64,000 nt of DNA, taken from the NCBI GenBank assembly GCA_963821525.1, contig CAWGED010000005.1:896001-960000 (forward strand), in the 5' to 3' direction. Shown here piece by piece: positions 1 through 14,814 of the stretch. The DNA is from an uncultured Gemmatimonadales bacterium (GTDB lineage: Bacteria; Gemmatimonadota; Gemmatimonadetes; Gemmatimonadales; GWC2-71-9). Position numbers and translations under genes: made by a program. Every line of letters begins with the position of its first letter. Position 1 is the first letter of the stretch. The notes below the pieces were generated by a model. It had not been told where the DNA came from. It saw only the letters and a list, made by a program, of their open reading frames with translations, and searched no databases.

Positions 1-614
1 GGGGCAGGAGCCCGCCGCGGACGGTCCGCTCGATCTCTTGCCCACCGAATGGGAAGTCCTCTCAATCGTGGACGGGAACCGCACCATTCGAGACGTCGCG
101 GCGACACTGGGCCGCTCCGAGTTCGACGTGGCCAAAACGGTCTTCGGCCTGGCCTCCGCCGGGACTCCTCATGCTGGAGGATCCGTCCCGCCGCGCTATT
201 GAAGAAACCTCGGACGGCGACCTCGCGATGCTCATCGGCGAAGCGGACTCCCACATGGATCAGCAAGACGCCGACGCGGCAGTAGCCGTCGCGGAAGTGG
301 CGGTGAGTCGCCATCCCGATCAGCCTCTGGCGTACCTCGCGTACGGGCGCGCGCTGCTCACGGCCCAGCGCTACGCCGAGGCCACCGATGCGCTGTGGTA
401 TGCCGTCGAACTGGATCCGCTATCCACTCCAGGCACCGCCTGCTCGGGCTTGAGTCTGATTGCGATGGGCCGCTTCCAGGAGGCCTCGGAGGTGTGGGAC
501 CGTTGGCGCCGGCTGGGGCCGATGGCGCCGCGAGGAGTCCGCTCAGCTGCCCGCGGTAGACCGCCTGCGGCAGGCCGCGCTCACGATCGACAACGCACTG
601 CGAGGTTCCCGTGA
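1..614 (+). CDS. 5'-partial DUF4388-associated winged-helix + TPR protein (frameshifted)
   Basis: Frame from nt 2 reads LDLLPTEWEVLSIVDGNRTIRDVAATLGRSEFDVAKTVFGLASAG, resembling the LIDGQRDVQDLIEESGLVEFEVGKALYGLVTAG segment of the 4888 protein. It continues into the TPR-like ORF 171-614 (PLAYLAYGRALLTAQRYAEA). Confidence 0.7.
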   Translation, partial: GRSPPRTVRSISCPPNGKSSQSWTGTAPFETSRRHWAAPSSTWPKRSSAWPPPGLLMLEDPSRRAIEETSDGDLAMLIGEADSHMDQQDADAAVAVAEVAVSRHPDQPLAYLAYGRALLTAQRYAEATDALWYAVELDPLSTPGTACSGLSLIAMGRFQEASEVWDRWRRLGPMAPRGVRSAARGRPPAAGRAHDRQRTARFP

Positions 615-1439
615 TTGAAGACATCCGGGCCCTCACCGCCCAATTGGCGGCGGACCCGACCAGTCTGGTCTTTCTTCGCCTGGGCGAAGCGCTCCGGGGG
701 CGAGGGCCAGCTCGAGGCGGCGCAGAAGGTGGCGCTGACCGGGCTCAGCCGTTACCCGCACCTGCCCGACGCTCACGATCTCTACGCCCGCATCCTCGCC
801 GACCGGCAGGACTACGCCAATGCGTTCGACGAGTGGGACATGGTCCTCCGCATCGCGCCCAACCACGTCGGCGCGAACAAGGGCATCGGCTTCCTCTACT
901 ACCGGGCCGGCGATCGGGAGAATGCCATCCGGCATCTCCAGCTGGCTCTGTCGGCCGACCCCGGCGATGACGGGCTGCGTACCGCGATCGACCGGCTGGG
1001 TGGAGGCGGTGAGGTATGGGATGCCCCTGAAGCGGCGCCACCGGAGATTACCGAGCCCCTGCCACAGCGCAGTCCGCCTGCTCCCGATCCCTTCTTCGGC
1101 TTCGAAGGCAGTGTGAACCGGCTGCTCCTCGCGAGCGCGGATGGCCTGAGGCTGGGCGGCGGACTCGCCAGCACTGCCGGCGAGGATGTGAGCGAGGTCG
1201 CCGCGGCACTCGTATCCGGCGCCGCGCGCGAAGCGACCCGGGCGGCGAAGCTGCTCGACCTCGGCGAATGGCGCCACGTCACCGTCGAATGCGGAGAGCT
1301 GAGCTTCTGCCTGGTCCAGCCGACGTCGGATACCGGGCTGATCGCGGCGATGGACACGGCGCTTCCCGTCGGCCAGCTCCACTTCCTCGCCGAGCGGGCC
1401 AGCAAGGCCGCGACCTCCTGGCTGGAGCGGGTGCGATGA
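611..1439 (+). CDS. TPR + C-terminal Roadblock/LC7 domain protein (frameshift near 700)
   Basis: N-terminus IEDIRALTAQLAADPTSLVFLRLGEALR, then TPR helices, then Roadblock-like LLLASADGLRLGG...AAALVSGAAREATRAAKLLDLGEWRHVTVEC. Confidence 0.75.
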
Positions 1440-1788
1440 TGCGCGACTACAAGGCCCTGCTCGAGCCGCTCACCCGGCTGCGTGGTGTGCGTGGCGCCAT
1501 GGTCGTCGCGGCCGATGACGGTGTCGTCGTGGTGGACGCGTTGATGGATGGCATGAAAGGCAAGGCTCTCGCGGCCCTCGCTGCGGCCCTCGCCAGCCGG
1601 ATCGTGGATCTCGAGCTACCAGGGCCTCGTTCGGCCCCGCCAGGTTCATCCAGCTGCAGGCGGCGGAAGGCAGCCTGCTGCTGGTCCCCGCGTCGGAGGA
1701 GCTGCTCCTGGTGACGGTGACCGGCCGTGATGTCCCGCTGGGACTCACCCGGCTCGAGATGCTCAAGGCCGCGGAGCGAATGCGCTGA
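1436..1788 (+). CDS. Roadblock/LC7 domain protein (frameshifted)
   Basis: GVRGAMVVAADDGVVV...ALAALAAAL and C-terminal PLGLTRLEMLKAAERMR, typical Roadblock pattern. ATGA overlap with the upstream gene. Confidence 0.75.
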
Positions 1789-2250
1789 TGCGGGCCTTGG
1801 AACCCTGGGTAGTCCGGCCACTTGCAGGACTTCGTGTCGGAATCATCCGCGCGATTGACCCTGCTCATGACGACGTCCGGCCAGGTGGTGGCGCAACACG
1901 GATTCACCGGAGCGCTCGACCTGATGTCGGCGGCGGCGCTGGGGGCTGCCATCATCTCGTCGTCGAGCGAAATCGCCCGGGTCATGGATTGGCCGCCCTT
2001 CCGGAATCTGGTGCATCAGGGCCAGCGGCAGGCGCATTATCTGGCCTGGTTCGACACTCCCAGAGGGCGCTGGATTGCGTTCGTGGTCTTCGGCACGGAA
2101 ACCAATCTGGGCCTGGTGCAAGTCTTCTTCGAGCAAATGGTGGAAGAGCTTGCGGCCGCTGCTCCGGTAGAGTCGGCCCCCAAGGAAGTGCTTGCTGTGG
2201 ATTTCGAGCGGGAACTCAACGCGAGCCTGCGGGCTCTTTTCGGACGCTAG
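1788..2250 (+). CDS. MglB-like Roadblock protein (putative GAP for MglA)
   Basis: LLMTTSGQVVAQHG...SAAALGAA...LVHQG...VVFGTETNLGLV resembles MglB. Lies immediately upstream of mglA. Confidence 0.75.
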
Positions 2251-2256
2251 GATTTC

Positions 2257-2859
2257 ATGTCGCTGGTCAACTTCACGACGCGTGAGATCACCTGCAAGAT
2301 CGTCTACTACGGACCGGGGCGGTCCGGGAAGACGACCAACTTGCAGTACATCTACGGCCGGGTTCCCGACTCGCGCCGGGGCCGCATGGTTTCTCTCGCG
2401 ACCCAGACCGACCGTACTCTCTTCTTCGATTTCCTGCCCCTCGACCTCGGCGTCATCTCCGGGTTCACAACCCGGTTCCAGCTCTATACCGTCCCGGGAC
2501 AGGTCTACTACAATGCCACGCGGAAGCTGGTGCTCCAGGGGACCGACGGTGTGGTCTTCGTGGCGGACAGCCAGGCCCGGCGATTGGACGACAATCTGGA
2601 GAGCCTGCAGAATCTGCAGGCCAACCTGCTGGCGCAGGGAGTGGAGGTGCGCCAGTTCCCCATGGTGCTCCAGTACAACAAGCAGGACCTGCCGCAGGAC
2701 CTGGTCCTCACGTCGAGCGATATGGACGAATCGCTCAATTTCTTCGGGTTGAAGAGCTTCCCCGCCGATGCGGTGCGCGGGACAGGAGTGTTCGAGACCC
2801 TGAAGGGGATTTCAGAGCTGGTGCTCAAGCGCCTGGCCGCAGGGAGTTCGGTGACGTGA
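2257..2859 (+). CDS. mglA: MglA small Ras-like GTPase
   Basis: [21 protein letters not shown] (G1), [16 protein letters not shown] (G3), NKQD (G4). Confidence 0.95.
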
Positions 2860-4888
2860 GTACTCCGCTGAACCCGCGGTACCGCTTCGACAACTACGTT
2901 GTGGGCGCAGCGAACAAGCTTGCCGCGACCGCCGCCCGCGCCGTGGCCGAGTCCCGGGCGCGGTCTACAACCCGCTCTTCGTCTACGCCGGATCCGGGTT
3001 GGGCAAGACCCACCTGCTGATGGCGATCGGGCACGCCGCCGCAGGAAATCAATCCGCAGGTGACGGTCGAGTATCTCACCCTCGACGACTTCGTCGAAGC
3101 CTTCCATACGGCCATCGCCGCAGGACAGGGAGACGCCTACCGCCGCCGCTACACCGAAGTCGGCGTGCTGCTGGTGGACGATGTGCAGTTCCTCACTCAC
3201 CGGCGCGAAATGCAGGCGGAGCTGCTCCGCCTCACCAACACGATGCTGTCCTCCGGCCGGCAAATCGTGCTCTCGAGCGATCGCCCGCCCAACGAGATCG
3301 AGGCGCTGGATGAGCGCCTGATCCAGCGTTTCGCCGGCGGGCTCGTGATCGACATCTCCGCACCCGATTTCGAAACCCGGGTCGCCATTCTTCGGAGACA
3401 GGCGGAGGAGCGCAAGGCGCAGGTTGACGCCAGCGTGATCGAGACCGTCGCACAACTGCCGCTCGGCAGCGTGCGGGAGCTGATCGGCGCTCTGAACCGG
3501 TTGATCGCGTTCCAGGCGGTGAGCGACAAGCCGCTGGACCCGCAGCAGGCCAGGGCAGTGCTGGGTCGAGTTGGTGTCGTGAAGCAGCCGAGTCCTGCTG
3601 CCGCGGAGGGACCTCCGAGTCCCGCTCAATCATGCCAGCCTGGAGAGTCACCTTCCCCTCGAACCGGAAGCCGTTCCGCCGCCCGAGGAGGAACCGGTGC
3701 TCTCGGGCGATGAGTTCGGCTCGTTCCTCTCCGAGATTCAGTCCGCGGTGGCGCGACAGGTCGAGCCGTGGCGGGTGAGGGTCAACGAGGCGATCCTCTT
3801 CTGGGACGGCGAAGGCTACCGGGTAGACCGGCTGCGCCAGATTCTTGGCCGAGGCATCGCCGGAGAACCCGGAAGCGGCGCTTGGCGCCTACATCGAAGA
3901 CATCGAGCGGCTCAAGCTGCTGCAGGCCGAGATGCAGGAGCTCGATCCCAGCGCCGCGGGCACCGCGCTGTTTCGCGATCCGGACCGGCTCTCCGAAGCA
4001 CTCACCGAAACCGATCGAGCACGCCAGGGCGCGAGCCCTCCGCCGGGACCCTCGCCGCTCTGGACGATGGAATCGTTCATCGAGTCGGCGGGCAACCGGA
4101 TGTCGGTCCGCTCGGCTCAGGCTGTCGTCGCCGAACCCGGAGCGACTTACAACCCGCTGGTAATCACCGGTAGCAGCGGAGTGGGGAAGACCCACCTGCT
4201 GCATGCGATCGGCAATGCCCTCGCCGCCAAGCCCAGGGAAGTCGTCGCCTGCCTCGGCACCCAGGACTTCGTCGATGATCTCATCAAGGCCATCGACAAA
4301 GACCGGGTGAACTGGTGGCGGATCCGCTATCGCCGCATCACCGCGCTGCTCCTCGACGACATCCACCTGTTGTCGGGGAAGGAGCGCTCGCAGGAAGAGT
4401 TGTTCTGGCTCTTCAATCTCCTGCACGAGGGCGGCAAGCAGATGGTCTTCACCTCGGCCCTGCCGCTGCAGGAGATCGAGGGCCTCGAACCACGTCTGCA
4501 GACCAGGCTGAACGGTGGGCTGGTGCTGGAACTCCCCGCGCCCGATCGGGAAGTCCGGGCCGCGATCATCGCCCGTCTGCTCGTCGAGCGAAAGCTGCCC
4601 GCCGACCAGGAGCTGGCGGACTATCTGGCGGGCAGGCCCGCCGACTCGGTGCGTAGTCTGCCCGAGATGCTCCAGCGGGTGCTGCACGAGGCGGATGAGC
4701 GTCACGGCAAGGTGAGTGCCGCCCTCGCGCGTGAAGTGCTGGAGGGCAGTCCTGCTGCCCCGTTGCGGCGCAGCACCGGCTATCGCACCAGCGGCGTGCT
4801 GTCGCCCACGGCGGGGCTCCGCAGCCGGGAGAAGATGGTGTGGGACTGGCCATCGCTGACCGATCGTGTGATTGAGGATCTGCGCTGA
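2856..4888 (+). CDS. DnaA/Hda-family protein with two tandem AAA+ domains (several frameshifts)
   Basis: Domain 1: [19 protein letters not shown]...[18 protein letters not shown]...LLVDDVQFL...SDRPP...RLIQRF...SVRELIGAL. Domain 2: [22 protein letters not shown]...LLLDDIHLL...RLQTRL...SVRSL. No DnaA domain IV is visible. Joining the pieces into one gene is an inference. Confidence 0.8.
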
Positions 4889-6505
4889 TGGCCATCAAGG
4901 GCAGCCTCAAAGAGGCGAGTCTCCCGGACGTTCTTCAGCTCCTCGCGCTGGGGAAGAAGAGTGGCTGCCTGGCCGTGGCTGACCGGCAGAACTTCGGCTA
5001 CGTGTATTTCGACGAGGGACGGATCTGCTACGCGTCCATCGTGAACCGGCGCGACCGGATCGGCGACCTCCTGGTGAAGAACGGGCGGGTCAGTCCGGAG
5101 CAGCTGGAGCAGGCGATCGCGCTGCAGGAGCAACGCGCGGGACAGCAAGCTGGGCGAGTTGCTGGTTGAAATCAGCGCGGTGACGCGAAAAGACCTCGAA
5201 GACTACATGCGGATCCAGATCGAGGAGGCGGTCTACTATCTCTTCACCTGGACCCAGGGGACTTTCAACTTCGAGGCCGGCATGCGGCCGGATCAGGACT
5301 TCCTGGTCCGGATCAACCCCGAGTCGCTGCTCCTCGAGGGCGCGCGCCGGGTCGACGAGTGGAGTCTCATCGAAAAGAAGATCCCCAGCTTCGACCTCAT
5401 CTTCGCCGTCGATCGGGAGCACGTCTCCGACACTGACGTGGAGCTCGAACAGGCACAGGAACGCCTCCTCGGTCTCATCGACGGGCAGCGCGACGTGCAG
5501 GATCTGATCGAGGAGTCGGGCCTGGTCGAGTTCGAGGTGGGCAAGGCACTGTACGGCCTGGTGACGGCGGGATTCGTGCGTCGGGTGGGAACTTCGGCGA
5601 CTCCGGCGCAGCCCCAGGTGAACGAGACCCGGGTCGAGGAGCACCGGAACCTCGGCGTCGCCTTTTACAAGACCGGCATGCTCGAAGAGGCCTCGCGGGA
5701 ATTCCGCAGAGTCGCCGATCTGCGCGCCGCCGACCCCAGCGCTCCGTTCTACCTCGGCCTCATCGCGCTGCGTCAGGCTCGGTGGGAAGACGCGGTCGAA
5801 GCGCTGACGGCGACGCTTGAGAAGGCCGGCTCTCGGCCCGCCGTGCTCTACAACCTGGCCTTTGCTCTCGAGCAGCTCGGCCGGTTGCCCGAGGCGGAGA
5901 CCGCGTACGCCGACGCGGTGAGCAAGTCGCGCGACGATGCCCGGCTGATGCTGGGATGGGGAGTCGTGGCGCTCAAGCGTAACGATTCGGAAGTCGCCAC
6001 CAACCGTCTGGCCCGGGCTCGAGAGCTCTGGGGTGAACGCCCCGTTCCGCCTACCTGGTATTGGGCGATGGCGCTCGCCCTCGCGGGCCAGGCCGATCTC
6101 AACGAAGCGCTCAAGATCGCGAAAGAAGGCGTCGCCGCGTTCCCCTCGGACGCCGTGCTCCGCAACAACCTCGCGGTCCTCCTGGAAATGAGCGGGGATT
6201 TGCCCGGCGCCGAAATGCTTCTGCGCGGGGCCTTGTCCGAGGACCCGACGCTTCCGCAGATCTCGAAGAACCTGGGCGACTTGTTCTACCGTGCGGGCCG
6301 CTACGACGACGCGTTCGAAGCCTACGAGCGCGCCGCCAAGCTGAGCCCCGAGTTGGGCGACGACCTGTACTTCAAGCTGGGCAACATCGCCTTCAAGCGA
6401 CGCGACCGGGAGCGTGCCCGGGTCTGCTGGCAGCGGGTGACCGAGCTCAATCCGGCCCATCAGCTCGCGCGGGCCAACCTCGACACTCTGGAAACCAGCG
6501 CGTGA
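4888..6505 (+). CDS. DUF4388 (PATAN) + MshEN-like + TPR protein (frameshift ~5140)
   Basis: [28 protein letters not shown]...YFDEGRI (DUF4388), RIGDLLVKNGRVSPEQLEQAIALQ, ESLLLEGARRVDEW, multiple TPRs. Confidence 0.85.
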
Positions 6506-7326
6506 CCGCAGAGCAGGATGCCGCTTTCACCGCTCTTGCGCAGCGCATCGCGGGGCGGGCCGGACTCGACGTCGGAGCTTACAAGGATCGCTGCCTCCGG
6601 CGCCGGATCGCCGTTCGCATGCGCGCCTGCGGCGTCCACACCTACTCGGACTATCTCGGCGAGCTCGACCGGCGTCCCGATGAGATCGACCGGCTCCTCG
6701 ATACCATCACCATCAACGTCACCAAGTTCTACCGCAACCCGGAGACCTGGTCCTGGCTCGAGCGAAACCTGCTGCAGGCGCTGGTCTCCGCCCGGCGGGG
6801 ACGGGTACGGGTCTGGAGCGCAGGCTGCGCTTCGGGTGAGGAACCCTATACCATCGCGATGGTGCTCGCTCAGGCCTGCGCCGCAGCCGGTCGCGAGGAC
6901 TGGATCGACGATGTCCGGATCGATGCTACCGATATCGACCGGGAGTCTCTCGACCGGGCGCGCGCCGCCCGGTACCACGAGCGGGTCTTCAGCGAGACGC
7001 CGCCTGCCTTGGTGAAGCGATACTGCCGTCAGATCGCGCCCGAAGAGTTCGAAGTGGATTCCCGTCTTCGTGCCGTCGTCGAGATCCGCCGGCTGGACCT
7101 GCTGCGGGAGTCCCCCGCCTCGCCCCAGTACGATCTCATCTTTTGCCGCAACGTGGTCATCTATTTCGATCGCCGGACCCAGGAACGTCTGATGGGCACC
7201 TTCTTCGACGCCCTGGTTCCCGGTGGCCACCTGATTCTGGGGAAAGTGGAGACCATCTTCGGACCGATCCGCGACCAGATCACTCTGCTCGAGCCTCGTG
7301 AACGCGTCTACCGGAAGCCGGTCTAG
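6502..7326 (+). CDS. cheR: Chemotaxis protein-glutamate O-methyltransferase
   Basis: TINVTKFYRN, RVWSAGCASGEEPYTIA, ATDID, DLIFCRNVVIYFD. Confidence 0.93.
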   Translation: MTAEQDAAFTALAQRIAGRAGLDVGAYKDRCLRRRIAVRMRACGVHTYSDYLGELDRRPDEIDRLLDTITINVTKFYRNPETWSWLERNLLQALVSARRGRVRVWSAGCASGEEPYTIAMVLAQACAAAGREDWIDDVRIDATDIDRESLDRARAARYHERVFSETPPALVKRYCRQIAPEEFEVDSRLRAVVEIRRLDLLRESPASPQYDLIFCRNVVIYFDRRTQERLMGTFFDALVPGGHLILGKVETIFGPIRDQITLLEPRERVYRKPV

Positions 7327-7806
7327 ATGGCGGGCGAGCAGATGGTGCGGGTTGCCGAGATCAAGGCCGCTACGGGAGACCAGATCCTGTGTACCCTCGG
7401 GCTGGGCAGTTGCGTCGGCATCGCCCTCTACGATTCGACCGCCCGGGTCGGCGGGCTCGCGCACATTCTTCTTCCTTCGCTCTCGCTGAGCCGTAACAGT
7501 CAGGCTCCAGGCCGGTTCCCGCAGTCTGCAGTGCCCGCACTCATCGCGGAGATGTCGGCGCTTGGTGCCGATCGGCGCCGACTCTTTGCGCGCCTGGTGG
7601 GAGGGGCGAGCATGTTCGCCAACCTCAACGCGCCCGGCTCCATCCAGATGGGCGACCGCAACGTCGTGGCGTGTCGCGAGGTGCTGAGCGCCCACGGCAT
7701 TCCGGTTGTGGCCGAGGCGGTGGGCGGAGGGCCAGGGGCGTTCGATGTGGTTTCACACCGCCGATGGGAAAATCGAGGTGCGTTCGGTCGGGAGCCCGGT
7801 CTATGA
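7327..7806 (+). CDS. cheD: Chemoreceptor glutamine deamidase
   Basis: TLGLGSCVGIALYD...GGLAHILLP...LVGGASMF...GDRNV. C-terminus probably frameshifted. Confidence 0.9.
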   Translation: MAGEQMVRVAEIKAATGDQILCTLGLGSCVGIALYDSTARVGGLAHILLPSLSLSRNSQAPGRFPQSAVPALIAEMSALGADRRRLFARLVGGASMFANLNAPGSIQMGDRNVVACREVLSAHGIPVVAEAVGGGPGAFDVVSHRRWENRGAFGREPGL

Positions 7807-8872
7807 GCTTTGACCTGCCCTCGGTCCTGGTGGTGGATGACAGCGCGTTCTTCCGGCGCATGATCTCCGAGATCGTCGCCGGTTCCGGCGCAGTTCCGCG
7901 TGGTGGGCACCGCGGCCAATGGAATGGAAGCGGTGCAGAAAGTCCACGAGCTTCACCCCGATCTGGTCACGATGGATCTGGAGATGCCTCAGCTCGACGG
8001 ACTCGGCGCGATCGGGTACATCATGTCGGAAGCCCCACGGCCCATCGTGGTCGTGAGCTCGCACGCGGGCGCCGGCACGTACCGGCTCGATCCGGGCTCT
8101 CGAGCTCGGTGCCGTCGAATTGGTGGCGAAGGAGGACGAGCAGGGCAGGGCGTCGGCGTTGCGAATCGCCCCCCGGCTGCTCGACGCGCTGCGTGCCGCT
8201 CGCGCGGCCGATATCGGGCGCCTGCCGGTTCTCGCCCGGCCGGCTACGGGTCGAGGGGCGGGCTCACGTCAGGGCGCCCAACGAGGCGCGCCGCACGCTC
8301 GCCATTGCCGCCTCAACCGGCGGCCCTCGGGCTCTGGCCGAATTGTTGCCCCAGATTGACCACCGGACAGGAAGCGGCGGTGCTGATTGTGCAACACATG
8401 CCGCGGGGATTCACCCGAAGCCTTGCCGAGCGGCTGGACTCGCAAAGCCGGCTCGCGGTGGTCGAGGCGGAGCAGGACGCTCCCGTTCGCGCCGATACCG
8501 CATACGTGGCTCCCGGCGATTATCATATGCGAATAACCTCCACCGCGACCGGCCTCAGAATCGTTCTCGATCAGGGGCCGACAATCTGGGGAGTTCGCCC
8601 GGCGGCTGATCCGCTGTTCTATTCGGTCGCCGAGTGTTTCGGTGCGGCCGCGGTCGGCGTGGTGCTGACCGGGCTGGGACGGGATGGAGCAGCCGGACTT
8701 CGTGCAATGCACGATGCCGGCGGCATCGGCATCGCGCAGGATCGGGAAACCGCCACGATTTACGGGATGCCCGGCGCCGCCCTGGCCGGCGGAGGAGCCG
8801 ACTACGTTCTTGGGCTCGGTCAGATCGCGGAGCACGCGAACCAGGATTCTCCGAGAAAGGCCGCGGCGGTGA
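7803..8872 (+). CDS. cheB: Chemotaxis response regulator/methylesterase (frameshifted)
   Basis: Receiver VLVVDDSAFFRR...VTMDLEMP. Esterase motifs ASTGG, VQHMP and LTGLGRDG. Stop inferred at TGA 8870-8872. Confidence 0.9.
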
Positions 8873-9298
8873 AGCAAGCATTGCTCCTGGTCTCTGCCGG
8901 AGGGCGGCAACTCGCCTTCCGGATGGCCGACGTGATCGAGGTGCAGGAGGGTGGAGAGGTGCACCGGGTTCCTGCCGGCGCTCCTGCGCTCGCGCGGAGT
9001 CACCACGGTTCGGGGCCGGTTGGTGCCGCAGGTGCACCTCGGCGCGTTGCTCGACCAGGGTACCTATCCCCCGGAACCCTGTGCGACCGTCGTCGTGGCG
9101 ACCACCGACACCGGTTTGGTCGCGTTCGAAGTGGATGACGCGGACGCGCACCCCGAGATCGAGATTCTTCCGGCTCCGGAAGACGAGAGACTCTCGTGGG
9201 TAAGTGGGGTGCTGCGTCAGCAAGAAAGGTGGGTGCCCGTCTTGAATCTGACAGTCCTGGAGGAACGGCTGCGGACCAGCGAGGTAAGCCACGCATGA
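8869..9298 (+). CDS. cheW: CheW-like adaptor (frameshifted)
   Basis: GGRQLAFRMADVIEV...RGVTTVRGRLVPQVHLGALL...VAFEVD. Confidence 0.75.
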
Positions 9299-9755
9299 CC
9301 GACGACGAACTGCAATTCGTGATCTTTCAGGTCGGTTCCCAGGCTCTGGCGCTCAGCATCTTTCAGGTCGAGCGCATTCTTCGCTGGGAGCAGCCCGCGG
9401 CGTTGCCCAACGCCCCGGCGTTCCTCGAGGGCGTGCTGCCCTACGGCGACGGCGTGGTCGCCGTGGTGGATCTCCGCAAGCGCCTCGACGCTACCGGCGA
9501 CGCAGCAGGAGGAAACCCGGGTCATGGTGCTGGAGCTGGAAGATCAGCGGGTCGGCATCGTCGTCGATGCGGTGCAGCGAGGTGGTCAGGGTCGATGCGC
9601 GTACCATCACCCCGCCGCCGCCCATGGTGCGGGGCCTGGCCGCCAAGTACATCACCGGCATCCTCAGCCAGCCGGACCGGACGGTCGTTGTGCTCAACGC
9701 GGGCAAGCTCCTCAACTCGAAGGAACGGCTCGCCCTGACCGGAGCGTTGGCCTGA
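9295..9755 (+). CDS. cheW: CheW adaptor (frameshifted)
   Basis: LQFVIFQVGSQALALSIFQVERILR...LPNAPAFLEGV...VVDLRKRL...VGIVVDAV. Confidence 0.85.
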
Positions 9756-9759
9756 GCTC

Positions 9760-10632
9760 ATGACCGATTCGCTGATTGCGACGCTGCGCAGCCAGTTCCA
9801 GGCGATCTCGCTCCGGCTCGACCAGGCCGGCTCCAATGCGGAGCGAGAGGCGGCCAAGCGGGAAATCATCGCCTACTTCAAGAAGGTGGATTCCACACTG
9901 GGCGAGCTCACCCAGTTGAAGGAAGACATCCGCGGACTGGTTGACCGCTACAAGCAGCTCCAGGCGTCGACCGATACCGCCCAGGCGCCGCAGTTCACCG
10001 GCGCCCGGCCGATGGTGCATGCCGACCACATCGGCGCCTCGACCTTCATCGAAAAGGGATGGAGCCTCATCTCCCTCGGTGATTACGCCGGGGCGATTCA
10101 GTCGCTCGACAAGGCGCTCCAGCTTTCACCGGCGGATGTCCAGGCCCAGTCGCTGCTCGGCTGGGCCCAGATGCTCCACGAGGATTACGACGACGCGCTG
10201 GCCACCTTCTCGAAAGTCTTGATGAAGGAGCCGGCGAATTCCCTGGCCCGCATCAACGTGGGCTACATCTGCCTCAAGAAGCGGATCTTCGGAGAGGCGA
10301 TCGAGCACCTGTCCAAGGCCATCCGGCTCGACAATGACCGGAAAGCCACGCTGTACGCCCACTACTATCTCGGGCTGGTCTACCTCGAGCGGGAGATGTT
10401 CGAGGACGCCCAGACCTTCTTTCAGAAGACCCTCAACCTCGGTCCCAATCTGATCGAGGCCTACTACGAGCTGGGCCGCGCTTCCTGGTTCATGGGAGAC
10501 AAGACCGCCGCTAGCGGCGCCTGGGAAGAGGGCTTCAAGGCCAACAAGTTCAATCCGTGGGGCAAACGCTGTAAGGAAATGCTCGATCTCGTCGCCTCCG
10601 GAGGAGAGCCGCCGCGCACGTCCTCCGCCTGA
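9760..10632 (+). CDS. N-terminal coiled-coil + TPR protein
   Basis: Intact 290-aa ORF with repeated TPR motifs (LGWAQML, VGYICL, LGLVYL). Confidence 0.85.
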   Translation: MTDSLIATLRSQFQAISLRLDQAGSNAEREAAKREIIAYFKKVDSTLGELTQLKEDIRGLVDRYKQLQASTDTAQAPQFTGARPMVHADHIGASTFIEKGWSLISLGDYAGAIQSLDKALQLSPADVQAQSLLGWAQMLHEDYDDALATFSKVLMKEPANSLARINVGYICLKKRIFGEAIEHLSKAIRLDNDRKATLYAHYYLGLVYLEREMFEDAQTFFQKTLNLGPNLIEAYYELGRASWFMGDKTAASGAWEEGFKANKFNPWGKRCKEMLDLVASGGEPPRTSSA

Positions 10633-10643
10633 TCTATCTGCTG

Positions 10644-11490
10644 GTGCAGGCCGCAGACTCGCTGACTCACGCCATGGTCGGTCGGGTCAGAGTCGTGGCT
10701 CGGGAGAAAGATCTCGCTCTCGGCATTCGCCTCGCCGAATCGGTGGACCGCCCGTTCGCCTGGCCGGGCCTCGGCCGCCGCGCACCGCCTCCCTTTACTC
10801 TGATTCTGGCTGCCGACTCGGCGACCATGTCCCGCATCGCCAGCGGTCGTGCGCCGGGCTGGGGAGCCGGGATCACTCTGCCTTCGGCTCGCACCATCGT
10901 TCTGCGCAGCGACCTCGGCGGTCTCGACCAGACGCTGCGCCATGAAGTGGCCCATCTGGCCCTGCACGATGCAGTCCCGGGGAGAGTCCCACTCTGGTTC
11001 GATGAGGGATATGCCTCGCTGGCTTCGGGAGAGTTCGAGCGGCTGATCACGCTCCAGCTCAACCTTTCGGTGGTTGCGAGGGCGGCTGCCGTCGCTTCGG
11101 GAGCTCGATAGTGACCTGAGGGGTTCGGCCCGCACCGCCGATGCCGCCTATGGTCTCGCCGCTTCAGCGGTGGCCGAGATCGCGCGGCATCCCGCGCCGG
11201 GTGGGCTGGAGCGATTGTTCAGCCGTATGGCCGCAGGCGATGATTTCGAGCAGAGTCTCATCGCGGCAACCGGGCTGACCCTCCGACAGATTCGAGAAGT
11301 CGTGGCAGGCAGGCGTTCGCCGGCGTTACGGTTTCATCGCCTGGTTGCTCGCGGGCGGCATTTGGGCTGTGGTGGCGGCTGTCCTTGGTGTCCTCGTATG
11401 GCTGCGCCGCCGCAGCGACCGACCCCGAAGGCTGGCCCTGGACCAGGGCTGGGAGATCGCTCCCCCCGATCCGCCGCCTCCGCCCGTTGA
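10644..11490 (+). CDS. Hypothetical zincin/peptidase MA-like protein (frameshifted)
   Basis: LRHEVAHLALH (HExxH) followed by VPLWFDEGYA. Probable C-terminal TM helix in another frame. Both ends uncertain. Confidence 0.6.
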
Positions 11491-11517
11491 CCCGGTCGAT
11501 CCGAAGCAGTAAGCTCA

Positions 11518-11715
11518 ATGCTTATGCCAAGTTCCGCCACTCCAACGGGTGAACGACACCTCCGGTTCGGCCCCCGAAATGTCATCCTGCTGGGGGCTGC
11601 CGTCGTCTCTCTGGTTGTGGGGTATCTTTGGTTGCATGCCGGTGGCACGACGGGTGCGGCCGCACTCCTCGTGCTCGGGTACTGCGTCCTTTTCCCTCTG
11701 GGCATTGCGCTCTGA
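11518..11715 (+). CDS. Small two-TM membrane protein
   Basis: FGPRNVILLGAAVVSLVVGY...LLVLGYCVLFPLGI, two hydrophobic helices. Confidence 0.6.
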   Translation: MLMPSSATPTGERHLRFGPRNVILLGAAVVSLVVGYLWLHAGGTTGAAALLVLGYCVLFPLGIAL

Positions 11716-11763
11716 TGCTCGTTGGGTAGTGGAAGGACGCGGTTCCCGTCGGCCTGACTATTC

Positions 11764-11838
11764 GGGCGAATAGCTCAGCTGGTCCAGAGCGCCTGCCTTA
11801 CACGCAGGATGTCGGGGGTTCGAATCCCTCTTCGCCCA
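11764..11838 (+). tRNA. tRNA-Val (anticodon TAC)
   Basis: GGGCGAA/TTCGCCC acceptor stem, TAGCTCAG D arm, anticodon arm CCTGC-CTTACAC-GCAGG, GTTCGAATC T loop. CCA not encoded. Confidence 0.95.
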
Positions 11839-11963
11839 TAGCGGGACGCCTGGTTGGCGGCCCGCGTGTTGTTCGGGCGGGCCTTGTGCCCCCCCTGGTT
11901 GGGCGTCCACGAGGGTCGCCCATGCGTATTTCGCTCTTCTGCTCCCTTTGCGGAGGCCATGTA

Positions 11964-13683
11964 ATGCGCCTGGTCCGTCTGCTGTCCCTGCCGCTGTTGG
12001 CCGCGATGCCCCTCGCGGCTCTTTCTGCCCAGATTCCCACTCGCCGTCCGGCACCGGGGGCTCCGACCGCCAACGCGCCCCGTTTGCTGGTAGCGAACCC
12101 CCATACGTTTTCGACTCAGGATTCCGCCTCCAGCGTCCTGATCGGTCAGGGAATTCGGGGCCGGATGGAGAAGGTGGTCGGCGTCCAGTTTCGCTGTTCT
12201 CGACCCGGGAACAGATGAACGACGCGCTGAAGCAGTTCGGCTATCCACCCGATGCGATCCTCGCCTCCACGGTCCAGAAGCAGTTCGGTAACGCCCTTCA
12301 GGCCCGCGCGCTGGTCTCTTCGACTCTTTCCAAAGATCAGAGTGGCCGCTTCTCGGTGACCTCGCGGCTCGCGGGCCTCAACGACGACGCGGGCAATGTG
12401 GTGGTCGTAACTCAGGCGCGCGAGCCAGAAGCTGGATGAAATGGGCGGCTCGGTCGCCGATGCGTTGCAGCCCGCGGTCAAGAGCTTCAACGATGCGCGG
12501 GCCTGCATCGATCAGAGCAAGGCGGCGCCGGACAAGGCCATCGCCTCGGCCAAGAAGGCTATCACCGCACTTCCGAAGAATGGTCTGGCCCATCTCTGCC
12601 TCGGACTGATCGCGCTGGACAAGAAGACGAACAAGGACAGCGCCGAGGCGATGGAGCATCTGCAACAGGGGGTGGAAGGAGACCCGCTGAGTCTCAAGGG
12701 CTGGACTACTCTCGCGCAGATCTACGAGGCTAAGGGCGACACGAACAAGACGGTGGACGCGCTGAAGCAGATGCTGCTGGTCGCACCCACCAACCAGACC
12801 CTGCGCGAGCAGGCCTTCAAGCTGTTCATCAAGTACGAGCGTCCCGACGCCGCCGAGCAAACCGCCTTGGACGGGCTCAAGATCGACCCGACCAACGCCG
12901 ATCTCTATGACCTGCTGAGCAACGCCCGGGTCTTCAAGGGCGATTTCGCGGGAGCGGTCGCCGCGCTGGAGCAGATGGTGGCCAATGATTCCACCAAGGC
13001 GGACAGCTCGTTTTATCTGAAGATTACCGTGATGGCGAGTCAGAAGCCTGATACTGCCAAACTTCTCAAGTGGGCTGCCGAGGGCAGCAAGAAGTATCCA
13101 GACTAACCTCGCCCTGCTGAACCAGCTGGTCGCGGCGTATCAGTTGACCGGACCGGTCGACAGCCAGGTTACCACCACCAAGCGGTTGATGGAGAAGGAC
13201 ACCACGGCCATAGGGCCCGCCCTCGCCACGGCGCAGGCGCTGGTCACCGCGAATCGCGCGAACGAGGCCCAACCATTCCTCGATTTCGTGACCAAATACG
13301 GCGACGCCCAGGCCAAGGAAGGGGTGTCGGTCATCCTGTTCAACATCGCGCGTCCCTTGCTGCAGCCGCCGCAGAACTGGCCCGAAGCCGCCACCAAGCT
13401 TCGTCAGGTCGTGGCGACCGCGAATCCCAGCGGCAAGATTTACCCGCTGGCCAACTACTACCTCGGGCTGTCGATCCTGCAGCAGATCCCGCCGCTCGAT
13501 GCGCAGGCGGAGAAGGAAAAATCCTGCGACAAGGCCAAACAGGAGGAGTCCATGGCGGCGGAGGCGGAAGCTGCCTTCAAGCTGGCACCTCCGGACCAGG
13601 CTCAGAATCTGGGGCAGTTCCAGAAGTATCTCGATGGCCTGAAACCGCGCATCGCGTCGATGCTTAAGGTCTACTGCAAGTAG
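11964..13683 (+). CDS. Secreted TPR-repeat protein (several frameshifts)
   Basis: Signal peptide MRLVRLLSLPLLAAMPLAALSAQ with a GGAGG RBS. Consecutive helical/TPR ORF pieces 12441-13106 and 13144-13683. Confidence 0.65.
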
Positions 13684-13750
13684 GGACGAGCGGGTGGTCG
13701 TCCCCTACCAATACGGGGGTCTGGTTCCTATATTCCCGCCCGCTCAATCA

Positions 13751-13825
13751 GGGGCTGTAGCTCAGCTTGGTTAGAGTGCCGCACTGTCACTGCGGAGGTC
13801 GCGGGTTCGAGCCCCGTCAGCCCCG
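13751..13825 (+). tRNA. tRNA-Asp (anticodon GTC)
   Basis: GGGGCTG/CAGCCCC acceptor stem, anticodon arm CCGCA-CTGTCAC-TGCGG, GTTCGAG T loop. CCA not encoded. Confidence 0.95.
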
Positions 13826-13843
13826 CTCCTTTGGGTTCGAGTC

Positions 13844-13883
13844 GACACCCCGTCCGCTGCTGCGGGCGGGGTGTCTCGCTTTC
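13844..13883 (+). terminator. Putative terminator hairpin after tRNA-Asp
   Basis: GACACCCCGTCCGC-tgct-GCGGGCGGGGTGTC stem followed by a weak U tract (tcgctttc). Confidence 0.5.
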
Positions 13884-13898
13884 GCGCGCTGAGTTCCG

Positions 13899-14814
13899 GT
13901 GACCCAACCTCCGTCCTACCACGAACCGGTTCTTCTCCGAGAAATACTCGAAGCCGCTCAAGGAGCGCGCCGGGTGGTGGACGCTACCCTGGGCGGGGGC
14001 GGCCACGCCGCCGCCTTCGTGGAGGCCGGAGCACAGGTGCTGGGGATCGACCGTGATCCCGAGGCGCTTGCCGCCGCCCGCGAGGTCCTCGACAGCCGGA
14101 TCGAATACCTGTTCGCCTCGTTCAGTGACCCGGCTGCTCTCCAAGCCATCACCGCGTTCCATCCCGACTTCATCCTGCTCGACCTGGGGGTGTCCTCCCA
14201 CCAGCTCGACGAAGAGGCTCGCGGGTTCAGCTTCCGGCCCGGCGCGCCGCTGGACATGCGGATGGGAGGCTCCGGAGCCACCGCCGCCGACCTGCTCAAT
14301 GAACTTGGCAGCGAGGAACTGCGCGAGGATTTTCGCCGAGTATGGGGACGAGTCCCGCGCCGGCCGGTTGGCGCAGGCCGTGGTGAGGCGCAGGTCGCGC
14401 CAGCAATTCGCAACCAGCGATGATCTGGTCAACGCGATTCGTAGCGTGCTCGGACCCCGCTCCGGGCCGGGGGACTTCGCCCGGCTCTTCCAGGCGGTCC
14501 GGATCGCGGTGAACGACGAACTCTCCGGGCTGGCGCGTGCTTTGCCTTCGATGCTGGAAGCATTGGTTCCCGATGGGGGACTAGCGGCGATCAGTTATCA
14601 TTCAGGCGAGGATCGCATCGTAAAGCACGCCTTTCAGGAATGGGCGCGGGCGTGCGTCTGTCCCCCCGGCACGCCGGTGTGTACCTGCCGTGGCCGGGCT
14701 CTGGGGAAGGTCAGGCCCCGGAAGCCGGTGAGACCATCACTCGAGGAAGCCGCCCGAAATCCCCGCGCCCGCAGCGCCAAACTGCGGGTCTTCCAGAAAG
14801 CCGATGACGTTTAG
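13899..14814 (+). CDS. rsmH: 16S rRNA m4C1402 methyltransferase (frameshift ~14330)
   Basis: HEPVLL, DATLGGGGHA, DLGVSSHQLD, PLDMRM, FQAVRIAVNDEL, ISYHSGEDR, NPRARSAKLR. Confidence 0.95.

Follow-up and report, generated by a model that had tools for sequence, protein, structure and literature searches.

A DnaA-type AAA+ protein without a DNA-binding domain, a putative docking adaptor in the Che-MglAB-PATAN gene cluster of Gemmatimonadota

Why should a protein built like the ATPase core of DnaA be encoded inside a chemosensory and polarity operon? The question is raised by a locus of an uncultured Gemmatimonadales soil bacterium, analysed here within a window of 64,000 nucleotides. ATPases of the DnaA clade are known for their parts in replication, helicase loading, and transposition. 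A preliminary description of the locus proposed a tandem DnaA-type protein joined to mglA, and offered either a link between polarity or chemosensory signalling and replication initiation or an initiator ATPase reused as a scaffold.

The gene lies at positions 2856..4888 of the forward strand, as do its parts and the adjacent cluster genes described below, and in the window as assembled it is spread over three frames. In its closest intact relative, a Gemmatimonadales MAG (L038) that is 93% identical over the C-terminal half, it is one intact ORF of 676 amino acids, against which the window gene has six single-base indels. In three of four short-read runs, which stem from separate studies, the contigs carry a frame-restoring difference at about 2952, 3039, 3617, and 3845; the fourth run scarcely covers the gene, and the compensating pair at 3593/3604 is missing from the short-read comparison table. 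One full-length ORF is present in 93 of 109 relative loci (89 distinct sequences), the other 16 being contig or locus ends, incomplete matches, or frameshift splits (5 loci in 3 genomes), and these splits fall at positions other than the breaks of the window. The single ORF anticipated after correction of the indels was therefore borne out by L038, by the relative loci and by the short-read contigs. That the gene is a decaying duplicate or a set of pseudogene fragments of dnaA might be argued from the frameshifted window copy, from the three split genomes and from the decayed single-module forms described below; against this stand the intact ORFs, the restored frame, and the near-invariant catalytic residues, which rule it out for practical purposes. 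Single-base indels are frequent throughout positions 1-14000 of the window, as in an unpolished long-read assembly, and most genes near the DnaA-type gene are frameshifted. Both overlaps of the preliminary description are present in the window and in L038: GTGA with the mglA stop at 2856-2859 and TGATG with the DUF4388 gene at 4886-4890. In all 93 full ORFs the next start codon is found a few bases from the stop. The gene is also covered by contigs of an RNA run, although contigs alone are no proof of transcription.

Every motif that had been named for the two DnaA domain III-like modules was found in the window, among them LLLDD, RLIQR, RLQTR, and SVR, the last one twice. The second module indeed has TSALP in place of the SDR-containing SSDRPP of module 1. 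Pfam placed Bac_DnaA on three fragments of the window gene, and neither Bac_DnaA_C nor DnaA_N on any of them. The ORF begins at 2856, four residues before LNP, in both the window and L038, and starts alike in the 93 full ORFs. The described absence of domains I, II, and IV agrees with these results. Module 1 (2856..3575) is a DnaA domain III AAA+ module with Walker A and B, sensor I Asp, arginine finger, and sensor II, in which the ssDNA-contact positions are substituted. It is followed by a variable linker rich in Pro and Glu (3576..3705), predicted to be disordered (pLDDT under 50 at residues 243-284; conservation 0.19), and by a first putative docking motif (3706..3765), an amphipathic DEFxxFL helix that is modelled with low confidence in isolation. 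A folded helical middle domain (3766..4033) precedes module 2 (4040..4753), a second DnaA domain III AAA+ module that has lost the sensor I Asp and keeps the arginine-finger face and a KERT-type ssDNA motif; in other lineages the lid, the P-loop or the whole of module 2 is missing. The protein ends in the second putative docking motif (4823..4888), a SREKxVWxWP..DRxIEE tail, and no other part of the family is kept so widely.

The AlphaFold model (mean pLDDT 87.9, pTM 0.54) shows two AAA+ modules, the disordered linker, the middle domain, and a loosely placed tail, with the relative placement of the modules left undefined at this pTM. The two modules share 37% identity, and their conservation over 89 sequences is 0.79 (module 1) and 0.71 (module 2). 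The middle domain is modelled with a pLDDT above 90, and is absent from the mini-proteins described below and from two other classes. Sequence and structure searches gave it no assigned family: there was no Pfam family in the first member, the best PDB sequence match reached only E 0.26, Foldseek gave no match at E 0.001 and the Atlas no usable match, and the best VIA Z was 6.1, to generic helical bundles. Such a failure to match does not establish a new fold.

Upstream of the gene are a TPR-Roadblock gene and a second Roadblock gene (611..1787), an MglB-like Roadblock gene (1788..2250), whose start is frameshifted in the window assembly, and the cluster paralog of mglA (2257..2859). Downstream are a gene for a DUF4388 (PATAN) protein with an MshEN-type c-di-GMP motif and TPRs (4888..6505, with an assembly indel near 5136), and cheR, cheD, and cheB (6502..8870, the end being approximate). 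In L038, cheY, cheA, and cheC lie upstream of the point matching the window start, and the operon of the window lineage reads cheY-cheA-cheC, TPR, DUF4388-TPR, TPR-Roadblock, Roadblock, mglB, mglA, the DnaA-type gene, DUF4388-TPR, and cheR-cheD-cheB-cheW-cheW. The MshEN-type motif of the downstream partner scores above its cut-off (49.4 vs 38). A second DUF4388-MshEN-TPR gene is located upstream in L038 (L038:5632-6780; window 1-614 is the end of this gene), with the motif at 38.1 for a cut-off of 38. Most Gemmatimonadales have two mglA paralogs (window 2257-2859 and, elsewhere on contig C5 of this genome, G000:C5:647964-648413), only one of them in the chemosensory cluster.

Neighbours were counted in 20 loci read gene by gene, which were hand-picked for diversity and oddity and are not a random sample. 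A TPR gene is directly downstream in all 20, with DUF4388 in 18, while mglA is directly upstream in 12. In the remaining eight, the upstream position is taken by rluA (G266, G136, G221), mglB (G077), cheC (G094, G202) or, in G042 and G045, unrelated genes; G266 and G136 yielded no mglA other than an unlinked one. Linkage to mglA, whose lack of conservation the preliminary description had named as grounds for refutation, is therefore common among these loci without being general, which goes in part against that description. In the family f7, the same 12 of 48 genomes hold the extra DnaA-type locus and the PATAN-TPR gene, and the cluster-type CheA was found in none of the 48 at E 1e-80. Neither the DnaA-type gene nor a PATAN-TPR match was found in G071, G280, and G306. 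Coupling to the downstream (PATAN/MshEN)-TPR gene persists where mglA, mglB or cheA is missing. Two genomes considered as cases of mglA without the gene were set aside, as G302 carries a different mglA paralog and the whole downstream cluster is gone from G306.

Across the 301 Gemmatimonadota genomes surveyed (four of which, G081, G119, G175, and G200, are unpublished and serve for the counts alone), a second DnaA-type locus was detected in 123 of 125 genomes of the window's family, 56 of 70 in f2, 3 of 3 in f3, 5 of 6 in f4, 1 of 1 in f5, the 12 of f7 given above, 4 of 4 in f8, and 3 of 3 in each of f11 and f12. It was found in none of the 23 genomes of f6 or the three of f9, and f10 gave a candidate second match in 1 of 11. 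The similarity search for the range of the family beyond Gemmatimonadota returned close matches first and then ordinary DnaAs. The number of AAA+ modules across the phylum is two, one or none. Both are full in the window's family; module 2 is without its lid in G090 and G062, without Walker A in G266 and G136, where ERAQDEFF and RLRSRFEGGL are still present, and absent from G076 and G128. G300 and G221 have a decayed single module, and in G042 and G045, from two other classes, a single module and the tail are followed by a TPR-only gene.

At the end of this series are genomes with no ATPase at the locus. Fourteen f2 genomes have only dnaA, and the tail is present in 10 of them. Nine of these 10 were read (G031, G035, G235, G245, G077, G134, G186, G094, and G202; eight were aligned), and each encodes, at the same locus, an ATPase-free mini-protein of about 60-85 residues composed of the EFxxF helix and the C-terminal WxWP..DRxIEE tail. 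Four genera are represented, though not necessarily as many independent losses. In eight of the nine mini-protein loci (L191:6148-7440, L193, L196-L200, L202) the downstream DUF4388-TPR gene is without the MshEN-type insertion, which G134 keeps; the ATPases and the c-di-GMP motif may have been lost together. In G134, short tandem repeats with a unit of about 15 bases (L192:5990-6092) separate the mini-gene from the DUF4388 gene. A profile of the mini-protein matched 1096 proteins of 33-128 amino acids, some of which may be pieces of longer proteins; the 120 listed have 60-78 amino acids and no Pfam family, and the named ones among those listed are hypothetical proteins of Gemmatimonadaceae or Gemmatimonadota. 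The mini-protein corresponds to a single low-score cluster (0.78) in the Atlas.

A profile of the 30-residue tail has exactly one match in 211 of the 301 genomes. Against 1.84 billion representatives it found 205 proteins, with the match C-terminal in 148 of the 150 listed, and gave no meaningful PDB or NCBIfam match. When 48 longer tail-bearing proteins were scanned, 38 had Bac_DnaA, nine had no family, and one had AMP-binding. Three singletons in which the tail is joined to DnaA_N, an AsnC-type HTH or AMP-binding (P0212, P0228, P0126) were set aside as probable metagenome assembly chimeras. The DEFxxFL helix and the WxWP..DRxIEE tail survive deletion of both ATPases, and neither the tandem nor the link to mglA is a constant part of the family.

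Residue conservation was examined in the 89 sequences, with B. subtilis numbering taken from an ungapped alignment and module 2 placed by pairwise alignment to module 1. The sensor I and sensor II positions are named by their correspondence to E. coli. The AAA+ features of domain III are complete in module 1 (87-89 of 89), while module 2 is missing solely the sensor I Asp, which is kept in 88 sequences in module 1 vs 7 in module 2. The Walker A Lys is present in all 89 in both modules, the Walker B Asp pair in 89 and 89 (module 1) and 89 and 88 (module 2), the arginine finger R264 in 87 and 89, and sensor II in 89 and 88, respectively. Also among 15 divergent forms, wherever module 1 is present, the G-K-x-H P-loop and the first Walker B Asp are invariant. 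Module 1 keeps the full nucleotide site; module 2 erodes on the nucleotide side and keeps the arginine-finger side.

The surface that contacts ssDNA in DnaA (residue roles from the available parts of PMC6669920 and PMC10721633) differs between the modules. Module 1 has His at I190 (74 of 89), Glu at Q224 (88), Met at T225 (73), Arg at K222, and Glu at N187. In module 2, Ile is kept at I190 (77), Lys at K222 (78), and Thr at T225 (72), Arg replaces Q224 (85), Glu228 is kept, and Asp is at position 187. Module 2 might by this surface bind ssDNA or RNA and so position the signalling complex on the nucleoid, a tether that we consider very unlikely: module 2 is missing in G076, G128, G300, G221, and the other classes, and the ER.Q.E.F helix stays where the P-loop is gone, so that its role may be structural or lie in the AAA+ interface.

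The relation to replication was considered next to the canonical proteins of the host. Its dnaA (C4:234198-235166) and dnaN (C4:233169-233885) adjoin each other on contig C4, elsewhere in the genome as the preliminary description had expected, and this dnaA is the only Bac_DnaA_C match of the genome. The window protein is not the replication initiator, as the host keeps a separate full dnaA beside dnaN. The assembly breaks the frame of this dnaA too (L001:943-1911, G000:C4), close to the start, and where B. subtilis has Q224 the host protein has Ala. What the window protein shares with DnaA domain III (PF00308; TIGR00362; 8btg/8bv3, T. maritima 2z4r, and A. aeolicus 2hcb/3r8f) is the AAA+ fold of the initiator clade, with Walker A and B, arginine finger, sensor II, and most of the filament-interface residues. 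It differs in the absence of domains I, II, and IV, in a module number that ranges from zero to two, in a location away from dnaN and, in the window, in an extra helical domain and the two short putative docking motifs. Like Hda or HdaA (TIGR03420), it is a DnaA paralog of the AAA+-only kind, having an arginine finger but lacking a DNA-binding domain; in contrast to Hda, it is fixed in a signalling operon, has a more DnaA-like fold, and falls short of the Hda cut-off of 194.8, the L038 protein reaching 178.9 bits over two stretches. The N-terminal extension that holds the clamp-binding site of Hda, according to the available part of PMC5742627, is by eye absent from L038 and from the full ORFs. 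The L038 protein passes the NCBIfam DnaA cut-off (489 against 343.9) only when the scores of its two stretches are combined. Its expected mode of action is that of domain III of DnaA, yet it fails membership of both DnaA and Hda.

It could nevertheless act on replication, if modules without domain IV co-assembled with or capped canonical DnaA filaments, whether by hydrolysis in the manner of Hda or by dominant-negative capping, and if origin firing were thereby gated by signals from c-di-GMP, Che or MglA. The fold is nearer to B. subtilis DnaA (8btg; for module 1, Z 31.8, rmsd 1.3 A, 237 aligned) than to Hda (Z 21.5), and no other Hda-like gene was found in the host genome (81% completeness). 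Moreover, of the eight filament residues given as essential for B. subtilis DnaA in the available part of PMC6669920, R202 (87 of 89 in module 1 and 86 in module 2), R264, L269 (89 in both), and R321 (87 and 89) are kept in both modules, and R206 is matched by Arg in module 2 (87). (Residue roles are also taken from the parts available of PMC10721633 and PMC5742627.) On the other hand, both ATPases are absent from the locus in the nine genomes of four genera, the modules are just 37% and 39% identical to the host DnaA, the clamp-binding extension is lacking, and no replication genes were present in the neighbourhoods read. We regard this regulator as unlikely, and the proposed link of polarity or chemosensory signalling to replication initiation found no positive support beyond the fold. 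Similarly doubtful is a combined proposal, in which a DnaA-fold polymer would be the hub of a phylum-wide c-di-GMP/Che/MglA system and would also co-assemble with canonical DnaA, gating replication initiation by polarity or surface signals; the mini-protein lineages would then have dropped only the cell-cycle arm.

The evidence agrees best with the other preliminary explanation, in which a scaffold has been made of an initiator ATPase: the helix and tail outlast the ATPases and the TPR gene is constant in the loci read; the tandem itself turned out to be optional. Judged from sequence, the DnaA cores are most likely optional add-ons on a docking adaptor in a signalling cluster. More specifically, and with no more than moderate confidence, we propose that the protein serves the Che-MglAB-PATAN cluster of Gemmatimonadota as an adaptor or scaffold subunit and has no part in replication; it would dock on the PATAN-TPR protein and use DnaA-type head-to-tail ATP assembly for valency or switching. 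The tail, probably together with the helix, would dock on the TPR superhelix of the partner, as suggested by their retention together with the coupled TPR gene. TPR domains commonly bind C-terminal peptides, and that the partner is TPR-only in two other classes points to the TPR as the docking surface. The DnaA-type modules would add ATP-dependent head-to-tail self-assembly, in which module 2 may lend its arginine finger to a module 1 site, a role suggested by its one-sided erosion. The assembly could cluster the predicted c-di-GMP-sensing partner into a multivalent, switchable hub, whose output, governed by the Che and MglA switch, is probably control of type IV pili or of polarity; the pilus output is drawn only from the gene content of an incomplete genome (4 PilT and 5 MCP matches, and no match for the flagellar rod, at 81% completeness). 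Two observations go against the adaptor: most lineages keep both ATPases strongly conserved, so that these are no mere decoration there, and module 2 of close relatives keeps DnaA ssDNA-contact residues that a pure scaffold does not obviously need. Both short motifs could also bind each other, a Roadblock protein or MglA, instead of the TPR protein.

Such binding would bring the protein close to RomR of the M. xanthus Frz-MglA/MglB/MglC/RomR system, which likewise has MglA, Roadblock proteins, and a Che pathway together. As a polarity hub, the tail would bind a Roadblock dimer of the MglC or MglB type, or MglA, and position the GTPase module directly. RomR-C also has E-K-x-x-W near the C-terminus after a disordered linker, and its E390, K391, and W394 contact MglC (PMC12719032, available in part); by the numbering of that paper, the spacing is the same in the tail, where E658, K659, and W662 are found in 89, 89, and 87 of the 89 sequences. 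The 12 loci with mglA directly upstream and the three Roadblock genes of the operon would fit as well. However, across the wider family it is the second Trp (W664) that never varies, the first being replaced in several mini-proteins, and the position of RomR E402, as given in the same source, is Arg in the tail. The tail also persists without mglA and mglB at the locus (G094, G202, G221, G266, G136). Unlike RomR, with its N-terminal receiver domain, the intact protein and the 48 tail-bearing proteins have no receiver domain, and the constant neighbour is the PATAN-TPR gene. No DnaA-type component is named in the available parts of the Myxococcus polarity papers. Taken with its evidence, this reading appears distinctly unlikely, and docking on the PATAN-TPR protein is preferred.

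No description of the gene was found in literature searches that covered result lists and the openings of abstracts, largely of open-access papers; a survey of prokaryotic small GTPases (PMC4316618, available in part) reports PATAN genes near some mglA and has no occurrence of "DnaA" in its main text, and its supplementary table S2 (mglA neighbourhoods) may bear on novelty. Within that coverage the gene is a real, undescribed variant with a testable minimal core. A homologue, WP_012682900.1, is recorded as "DnaA/Hda family protein" or "DnaA", and such records, with the passage of the DnaA cut-off, may explain why the family was overlooked. Most of a major soil phylum has this DnaA fold within a signalling cluster, where annotations record it as dnaA. 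By their natural deletions, from two modules through one and a decayed one to no ATPase, the relatives reveal the roughly 40 residues that count, and the ATPase-free forms are a ready minimal bait for finding partners. As the cultured Gemmatimonas aurantiaca has a homologue on record, the question is open to bench testing. Finally, Rfam detected only two tRNAs, tRNA-Val (window 11764-11838) and tRNA-Asp (13751-13826), which follow the cluster and are themselves followed by an rsmH-ftsL-ftsI-like start of a division cluster, named from the translations.
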